From: Octopus vulgaris
Taxonomy: Eukaryota
DNA: 64,000 nt
Reading direction: 5' to 3'
Assembly: GCA_951406725.2 (NCBI GenBank)
Contig: OX597843.1
Span: 16,182,001 to 16,246,000 of the forward strand
Each line of letters begins with the position of its first letter. Position 1 is the stretch's first letter. A program made the translations under genes and the position numbers. Positions 24,553 through 31,006 of the stretch are shown piece after piece. The notes under the pieces were generated by a model. That model saw only the letters and a list, made by a program, of their open reading frames with translations. It was not told the origin of the DNA and made no database searches.

Positions 24553-24587
<35 letters not shown>

Positions 24588-24589
24588 TG

Positions 24590-24840
24590 TAGAAAAATAC
24601 AAACTGGGACAAGAAGACGATACAAAAAACATGGACGGGACATTCAAAACCTTCAATCTTCAGTCAAGAACCGGATCATCCTAGCAATTTCGGCTGATTA
24701 ATCTTGAGATCGCTCCGATCCGGCCAGCCCCAAGGAAAAACTAAGCTACGAGCATTAGATTTCTTGGAAGAAGGATCGAATGTATACGAAACAGGGACAG
24801 AAAAACGGACGATGCCACACGAATATAAAATACAAAAAAC
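24590..24840 (-). mobile_element. Short T-rich insert in (TA)n containing a four-helix pseudoknotted motif
   Basis: Bounded by (TA)n on both sides; composition resembles the hammerhead-bearing repeats; four complementary pairs at 24664-24729. Confidence 0.5.
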
Positions 24841-24859
24841 ATATATATATATATGTAAT

Positions 24860-25177
24860 TAATTAATAAGGGTGAGAGAATTAGATACTAATTTAATAGT
24901 ATATCTATTCAACACCAAGTGGCCTAGTGCTCCGAGAAACCTGGATTATTATAATATTTTATAATATATTATAATATTTTTACAAAATAAATATAAGAGA
25001 GTGGTCACTATATGGCTCACTCTAGCACTAGTTAATCCAAAAGGTTTCGACCACAAAAATACATGTTTCCCATGAAAGTCAGTACGCATGGGAAACATGT
25101 ATTTTTGTGGTCGAAACCTTTTGGATTAACTAGTGCTAGAGTGAGCCATATAGTGACCACTCTCTTATATTTATTTT
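24860..25177. mobile_element. Related foldback element with perfect 91-bp inverted arms
   Basis: Arms 24984-25074 and 25087-25177 with a 12-nt loop. The tail (agggtga...aacacc.agtggc.tag) resembles 27670-27730; (TA)n flanks. Confidence 0.65.
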
Positions 25178-30961: not shown

Positions 30962-31006
30962 ATAGTAACTTCAAAGTTTCTATTAGCTAAGCCATCATCA
31001 GACTAT
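30962..31006 (-). ncRNA. Type I hammerhead ribozyme candidate
   Basis: auagu-CUGAUGA-uggc(uua)gcua-aua-GAAA-cuuugaag-UU-acuau. Intact core, 5-bp stem I, near-palindromic stem III, irregular stem II. Confidence 0.6.

Follow-up and report, generated by a model that had tools for sequence, protein, structure and literature searches.

The minus strand of the window (the whole stretch of 64,000 nucleotides of Octopus vulgaris DNA that was analysed) carries a motif of about 145 nt, at 24783-24640, which very probably has the architecture of a hammerhead ribozyme. The motif is judged to be a known ribozyme in a new topology and not a new ribozyme class. Judging from its sequence, it is likely to fold into an active ribozyme that cuts the element RNA after the triplet AUC (24708). 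The explanation as a whole, namely a split S-G-C hammerhead which is active and cuts after this AUC, is regarded as probable, and activity in cis would be expected with good confidence.

The initial annotation had confined the structure to 66 nt with four helices, a to d. A sequence check agreed with these helices at 24664..24729 on the minus strand and with the single G-U pair in c. The 66-nt bounds turned out to be too small, leaving out the CUGAAGA directly after d' (primes denote partner strands). Hammerhead numbering assigns c to stem III, d to stem I and a to stem II, and the cut is expected after 24708. Read 5' to 3' on the minus strand, the motif opens with the 5' strand of the closing helix IV (24770..24783; ACAUUCGA and CCUUC), identified by the minimum free energy (MFE) fold and covariation. 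Hairpin V (24730..24767), drawn from the MFE fold, covariation and the parsing of representatives, lies between helix IV and stem II. Next comes the 5' strand of stem II (a, 24725..24729, with G10.1 at 24729), which is displaced upstream according to pairing, covariation and copy counts. The 5' strand of the interaction helix b (24717..24723; pairing and covariation) is the counterpart of helix 'I' in PMC10085705. The AUC (24710-24708) stands between c and d; the 3' strand of stem III (c) together with C17 occupies 24708..24714, and cleavage after 24708 is predicted by analogy. The strand of stem I 3' of the predicted cut is d (24702..24707; pairing and covariation). Block G (24683..24696) consists of the 3' strand of stem II, CAGCC, followed by G12-A13-A14-A15.1 and the 5' strand of stem III; its GAAA (24691-24688) is directly 3' of a' and ends in the A that begins c'. 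After b' (24671..24677; pairing and covariation), the partner strand of stem I, d', runs directly into CUGAAGA (together 24657..24669, the heptamer being 24663-24657). The motif closes with the 3' strand of helix IV (24640..24654; MFE fold and comparison of copies), in which the window copy has two C-to-U changes relative to the commonest copies, with pairing preserved. This post-core strand finds its partner about 45 nt on the 5' side of a.

The motif belongs to a non-autonomous element which targets (TA)n and of which a 5'-truncated 3' end is present here (24589..24840, minus strand), recognised by repeat comparison; a further 16 nt are missing from this copy downstream of the motif. The setting described earlier, an insert of about 250 bp between two (TA)n tracts, was confirmed, the tracts being at 24554..24588 (element 3' end) and 24841..24854 (truncated 5' end). 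The statement that other inserts of the window carry hammerheads was not reproduced: scans for cores and stems turned up a single weak canonical candidate, at 31001. At 24985-25101, just past the 5' flank of the element, an inverted repeat was also observed, which is long and nearly perfect.

The hammerhead core is complete. C3-U4-G5-A6-N7-G8-A9 follows stem I, G12-A13-A14 lies between stems II and III, and A15.1-U16.1 and H17 are present. Since all core nucleotides are in place beside helices a, c and d, the motif is identified as a hammerhead, and the earlier idea of a new ribozyme class replacing the hammerhead was abandoned. Among 79 copies selected by a downstream anchor, 77 had an intact CUGAAGA, the last two bases of which belong to the anchor. 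The strand order is IV - V - II - b - III' UH / I - link - II' GAAA III - b' - I' CUGANGA - IV', with the slash at the predicted cut. The core strands follow each other as cleavage site, GAAA and CUGANGA (S-G-C), which is no circular permutation of types I-III. The observation that the strand order departs from the textbook folds holds, the order being S-G-C, additionally interrupted between A9 and G10.1. No known Rfam family was matched at the gathering threshold, the only hits being two chance ones to snoRNAs (E 6.7 and 7.8); with the order S-G-C and no model match, the motif falls outside types I-III as modelled in Rfam. Hammerheads with extra helices are reportedly dealt with in Weinberg et al. 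2015.

The core order S-G-C was described by Eckert et al. (2023) as the non-circular type SGC, for which cleavage was demonstrated, with in vitro values of 0.007-0.19 per min (PMC10085705). Like type SGC (HRIMA-1), the present motif has the block order S-G-C, the same core, a short link between stems I and II, and an extra helix that joins the other sides of both stems (PMC10085705). Helix b is this extra helix: its 5' strand comes after a, and b' comes before d'. Unlike type SGC, the motif has a split block C: the 5' strand of stem II lies upstream, and A9 and G10.1 are separated by two additional helices, the closing helix and hairpin V. Eckert et al. state that in known hammerheads no more than 1-2 bases are inserted between CUGANGA and the stems, and they assume that the CUGANGA block cannot be interrupted; their RNAmotif pattern for SGC requires stem II directly after CUGAUGAUG (PMC10085705).

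The element is multi-copy and not single-copy. A 25-base pattern from the 3' part of the insert gave 3018 exact matches in the 2.8-Gb genome vs 0 for the reversed control, and the window's family, family 1, has about 3,000 copies in the genome. Its full units measure 807-865 bp, occur as partial tandems, arrays and inverted pieces, and terminate in TA; at L002-L030, some of these loci overlapping, 46 of 52 3' ends ran into TA. Family 1 displays traits of retrozymes and non-autonomous Penelope-like elements (microsatellite target, partial tandems, inverted 5'-truncated copies), and its Penelope-like nature is read from this anatomy.

A more general pattern, GAAA at 15-24 bases 5' of CUGAWGA, matched 4354 times in the genome vs 502 times for the reversed control. 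Fifty loci from this pattern were inspected, and further loci were reached via later patterns. The layout was found in family 1, family 2 (3005 pattern matches), family H, the HERO-like families B, C and D and a Naiad-like family (259 matches). Fourteen representatives from families with unrelated helix sequences were parsed, and the strand order was identical, with 2-7 nt linking stem I to stem II; V and IV were not cleanly parsed in L181, L282 and L346, nor was b in L346. Family G (L267-L272) matched a pattern and was rejected as a split form, being a canonical type I hammerhead; this separate repeat family (C1, C3-C7) has full stems II and III. A palindrome, TCACGTGA, which we take to be an E-box, was seen upstream of the motif in L005, L044, L195 and L062 (subfamilies of family 1, a family-H-like copy and HERO-like family B) and is possibly an internal promoter site. 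Independent internal deletions of the a-b segment or of part of stem I were observed in L157, L165, L199, L098 and L252; they look as if the reverse transcriptase (RT) had jumped inside the knot.

In order to locate the partner of stem II, at least 4 Watson-Crick pairs counted from C11.1 were demanded in 111 distinct copies passing a filter on stems I and III. Such a partner lay upstream in 84 copies; the stretch 3' of the core, where an uninterrupted block C would place the strand within 2 nt of CUGANGA, supplied one in 1 copy, and a control window likewise in 1. In HERO-like family B four stem II pairs were present in only 2 of 10 copies, 3 pairs being the usual number. Pairing of the post-core strand with CCUUGG just before helix a was also tried and discarded, as it fails on subfamily 2.

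The initial annotation had proposed a selected RNA structure in a retroelement, which is supported by compensatory changes in all four helices a-d among diverged relatives (alignment A1). A1 comprised 20 family-1 sequences, 9 close and 11 diverged; 5 of 16 diverged matches were omitted as truncated, inverted or deleted. It was found that 20 of 45 pairs change on both sides, with every helix involved (stem I 3/6, II 3/5, III 4/5, b 3/7, IV 5/15, V 2/7), a count reached by 0 of 500 shuffles, which here and for alignment A2 treat the sequences as unrelated. Pairing was 86.5%, vs at most 46% with the structure slid along the alignment. A2 consisted of 11 HERO-like sequences, L095 and 10 of 17 metagenome contigs, the 7 cut-short contigs being omitted. 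Here 14 of 35 pairs change on both sides (0 of 500 shuffles), mostly in IV, V and b, and stems I-III are near-invariant, with 1/5, 1/5 and 0/6 covarying pairs. Each tested structure was drawn on a single alignment row (L117 and L310). Because the search pattern fixed the core bases, the invariance of the core in diverged sequences is not independent evidence. Unconstrained MFE folding returned helices IV, V, b and c, with an unremarkable fold energy (z = -1.6; 9 of 200 shuffles equally good). A descriptor of the hammerhead reading gave 1 match in the window vs 0 in 200 doublet shuffles.

The motif is also found at the ends of coding elements. In family B (L183) it shares its strand with an RT, a CCHC knuckle and a restriction-like endonuclease, all of which lie upstream of it; the RT was assigned by Pfam (RVT_1, E 1e-9), and the knuckle and endonuclease motifs were recognised by eye. 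Endonuclease fragments and Naiad-like fragments were not recognised by Pfam. A 483-aa frame precedes the motif on the same strand in L309, and in families C and D the motif is 3' of endonuclease ends resembling that of family B. The hosts of families B-D are presumably HERO-like, the label being given from their motifs. The family-D pattern yielded 31 metagenome stretches, 17 of split type and 14 chance matches, and in 4 of the 17 an endonuclease-type frame ends just upstream of the motif; the split-type contigs are taken to be animal host DNA. In Naiad, HERO-like and family-1 elements the motif lies 40-130 nt from the 3' end.

Naiad elements were described by Craig et al. (2021) as targeting (TA)n and as being without canonical hammerheads, with 8 'half-core' cases (PMC8557442). 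In the part of the supplement that was sampled (31 of 87 places for one term and no more than the first 10 for the others), the split layout was recognised by eye in at least 8 published consensus 3' ends with five distinct sequences (PMC8557442). One of these ends precedes Naiad_Mley (stem I of only 2 bp), three near-identical ones precede Naiad_Aacu, Naiad_Anas and Naiad-1_Movir, two are in part 12, and the remaining two are those of Naiad_Obim and Naiad_Ovul. Several other Naiads in the same supplement have the canonical core order (PMC8557442). A family resident in the present genome has a 3' end nearly matching the published Octopus Naiad consensus ends. At 9 of 100 listed motif places of the Naiad-like family, a same-strand match to an RT-end fragment lies 0.8-1.9 kb upstream of the motif, two of the nine having supplied the RT-end query. 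Like Naiads, family 1 targets (TA)n (PMC8557442); unlike them, the window's family was without a link to a Naiad ORF in the loci examined.

An autonomous RT/GIY-YIG partner of family 1 was not found behind two GIY-YIG families, 30 loci of each being inspected; these families, one of them Neptune-like, end in other or minimal hammerhead cores. Nine diverged Naiad-like matches included 1 with the motif, of the Naiad-like type, and 8 without it within 2 kb. GIY-YIG fragments beside L027 and L096 were rejected as the partner, being on the opposite strand, and were treated as chance junctions. The Neptune-like family (L201-L230) is of high copy number, encodes RT and GIY-YIG in open frames of up to 635 aa and has only a degenerate hammerhead-like core at its 3' end. 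An old GIY-YIG Penelope-like family (L313, L314, L319, L321, L328) was observed to carry a minimal hammerhead core that ends its 3' UTR, about 340-420 nt past the endonuclease motif.

The 5' ends of copies show a step at the predicted cut. In 79 hand-curated copies of family 1, chosen by a downstream anchor in genome order, with 7 rows dropped for false stops or internal deletions, 26 ends were at 0..+41 vs 3/53 at -1..-42 (p = 2e-4). Close to the site, 7 of the hand-curated starts were at 0..+3 vs 0 at -1..-8 (p = 0.014). The uncurated counts were 26 vs 8 in 40-nt windows (p = 0.026) and 15 vs 6 in 15-nt windows (p = 0.15). In family 2, 11/30 starts were at 0..+14 vs 1/19 at -1..-15 (p = 0.017), with 2 rows dropped and one locus scored in both arms. 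The step could alternatively be attributed to stalling of the RT in the knot or to microhomology with (TA)n. Microhomology is possible in family 1 because the bases past the site are A/U-rich; family 2, with C-rich bases there, is less exposed to these confounders. The majority of copies read past the predicted site, and therefore cutting cannot be both fast and irreversible. RNA contigs from four runs of four organisms span the stretch, with a depth that rises past the site in some; such contigs show neither ends nor levels. Two further junctions were observed. At L232:1500 (minus strand), a single case, an inverted copy is joined at the predicted cut via stem I complementarity, as would be produced by snap-back at an RNA 5' end. 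In family F, L261-L264 all start at about one place near the predicted cut and follow the inverted end of another family, L265 and L266 being longer.

The following course of events is proposed. The motif RNA would fold only once helix IV has been transcribed, and the folded motif would cut after AUC. Where units stand in tandem, one cut after another would set unit-length RNAs free. Some 30 bp, contributed by helices II, b, III and IV, would hold the cut pieces together, unlike in plain SGC ribozymes, where stem III alone would do so. Since the pieces would stay paired, the nick would be reversible, and the ends of one unit could re-pair and be ligated into a circle. Copies starting at or just past the site would arise by reverse transcription of the nicked RNA, and longer and tandem ones from RNA that is intact or circular. 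For retrozymes, circles from tandem units have been shown (PMC7229834) and a Penelope-like origin has been proposed (bioRxiv 10.64898/2026.07.22.740005). A nick-and-hold or circle role of the motif is put forward tentatively, with the balance leaning against it.

It is unlikely that the motif is a hammerhead-derived fold which does not cut, or cuts very slowly, and is retained as a 3'-end structure for binding of the RT or endonuclease or for RNA stability. Such a role would suit the position near the 3' end in all three kinds of element, Naiad, HERO-like and family-1; a cut there would part the ORF from the 3' end. It would also suit the majority of copies, which run through the site. The link between A9 and G10.1 is interrupted, and a two-helix junction at this point could make the core slow or dead. 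Against a non-cutting fold, stems I and III and the NUH triplet are in catalytic register across families with unrelated helices without having been demanded by the search pattern, and copy 5' ends start at the site, not before it. A different active fold, either plain SGC or a dimeric minimal type I formed by the core and a downstream GAAW, with the drawn structure as the off state, is quite improbable. When G-U pairs are allowed, 13 of 17 copies of families 2 and H could form at least 4 post-core pairs as a plain SGC ribozyme, and these copies may be intermediates; the same pairing occurs in 0/59 copies of family 1 and 0/23 of HERO-like B, C and D. Another GAAA is present downstream in subfamily 2 of family 1, but the downstream GAAW covaries with the upstream strand of helix IV and is gone in diverged members.

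That the motif belongs to a new class of ribozyme or RT-recognition RNA, with no kinship to hammerheads, would agree with the result of the Rfam search and is nevertheless very improbable, as the hammerhead core positions are complete, the right stems adjoin them and the order is a published permutation (PMC10085705). Chance complementarity amplified by transposition can scarcely be credited. It would account for the modest fold z-score and for close copies being more than 98% alike, but not for compensatory changes in each helix or for the identical layout of families with unrelated sequences. An active split hammerhead of S-G-C order is the preferred reading.

The wider proposal combines several parts: a hammerhead topology that would be the seventh in nature and would fall outside the six block orders considered possible, active as a reversible nick-and-hold device, common to Naiads and HERO-like LINEs across animal phyla, explaining the 'missing' hammerheads in part of the Naiad clade, and circularising unit-length RNAs by re-pairing of their ends. 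Taken together, these parts are given a little less than an even chance. In the searchable full text, with subscription journals, Repbase notes and bioRxiv supplements lying outside it, there was no report of the split form, of SGC in animal genomes or of hammerheads in HERO. The split motif contradicts the assumption that the block of CUGANGA and stem II is uninterruptible. It brings non-circularly permuted RNAs from anonymous metatranscriptome contigs to thousands of copies in animal genomes with identifiable hosts, adds a group of LINEs in which a hammerhead motif occupies the 3' UTR, and offers a possible answer to the failure of hammerhead searches on Naiad elements. Standard descriptors and Rfam miss the split form, so that ribozymes in animal genomes are probably undercounted. 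RNA engineering would also gain a new scaffold in a hammerhead whose 5' and 3' ends exit via the core.

Compared with known systems, the motif differs from the published SGC examples, which are all metatranscriptomic and none in genomes of known organisms, in that it is found in animal retroelements (PMC10085705). It resembles the hammerheads of Penelope-like and non-LTR retrozymes in lying near the 3' end and in its tandem units, inverted 5'-truncated copies and non-autonomous arrays (PMC7229834; bioRxiv 10.64898/2026.07.22.740005). Unlike the split motif, retrozyme hammerheads are of type I, circular in order and often minimal (PMC7229834; bioRxiv 10.64898/2026.07.22.740005). The units described here measure 807-865 nt vs 170-400 nt in retrozymes. 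Among non-LTR retrotransposons with a restriction-like endonuclease, HDV-like ribozymes occur at the 5' ends of R2. Like these, the present motif is a candidate self-cleaving motif within a LINE; unlike them, it is a hammerhead and not HDV-like, and it is located in the 3' UTR and not at the 5' end.
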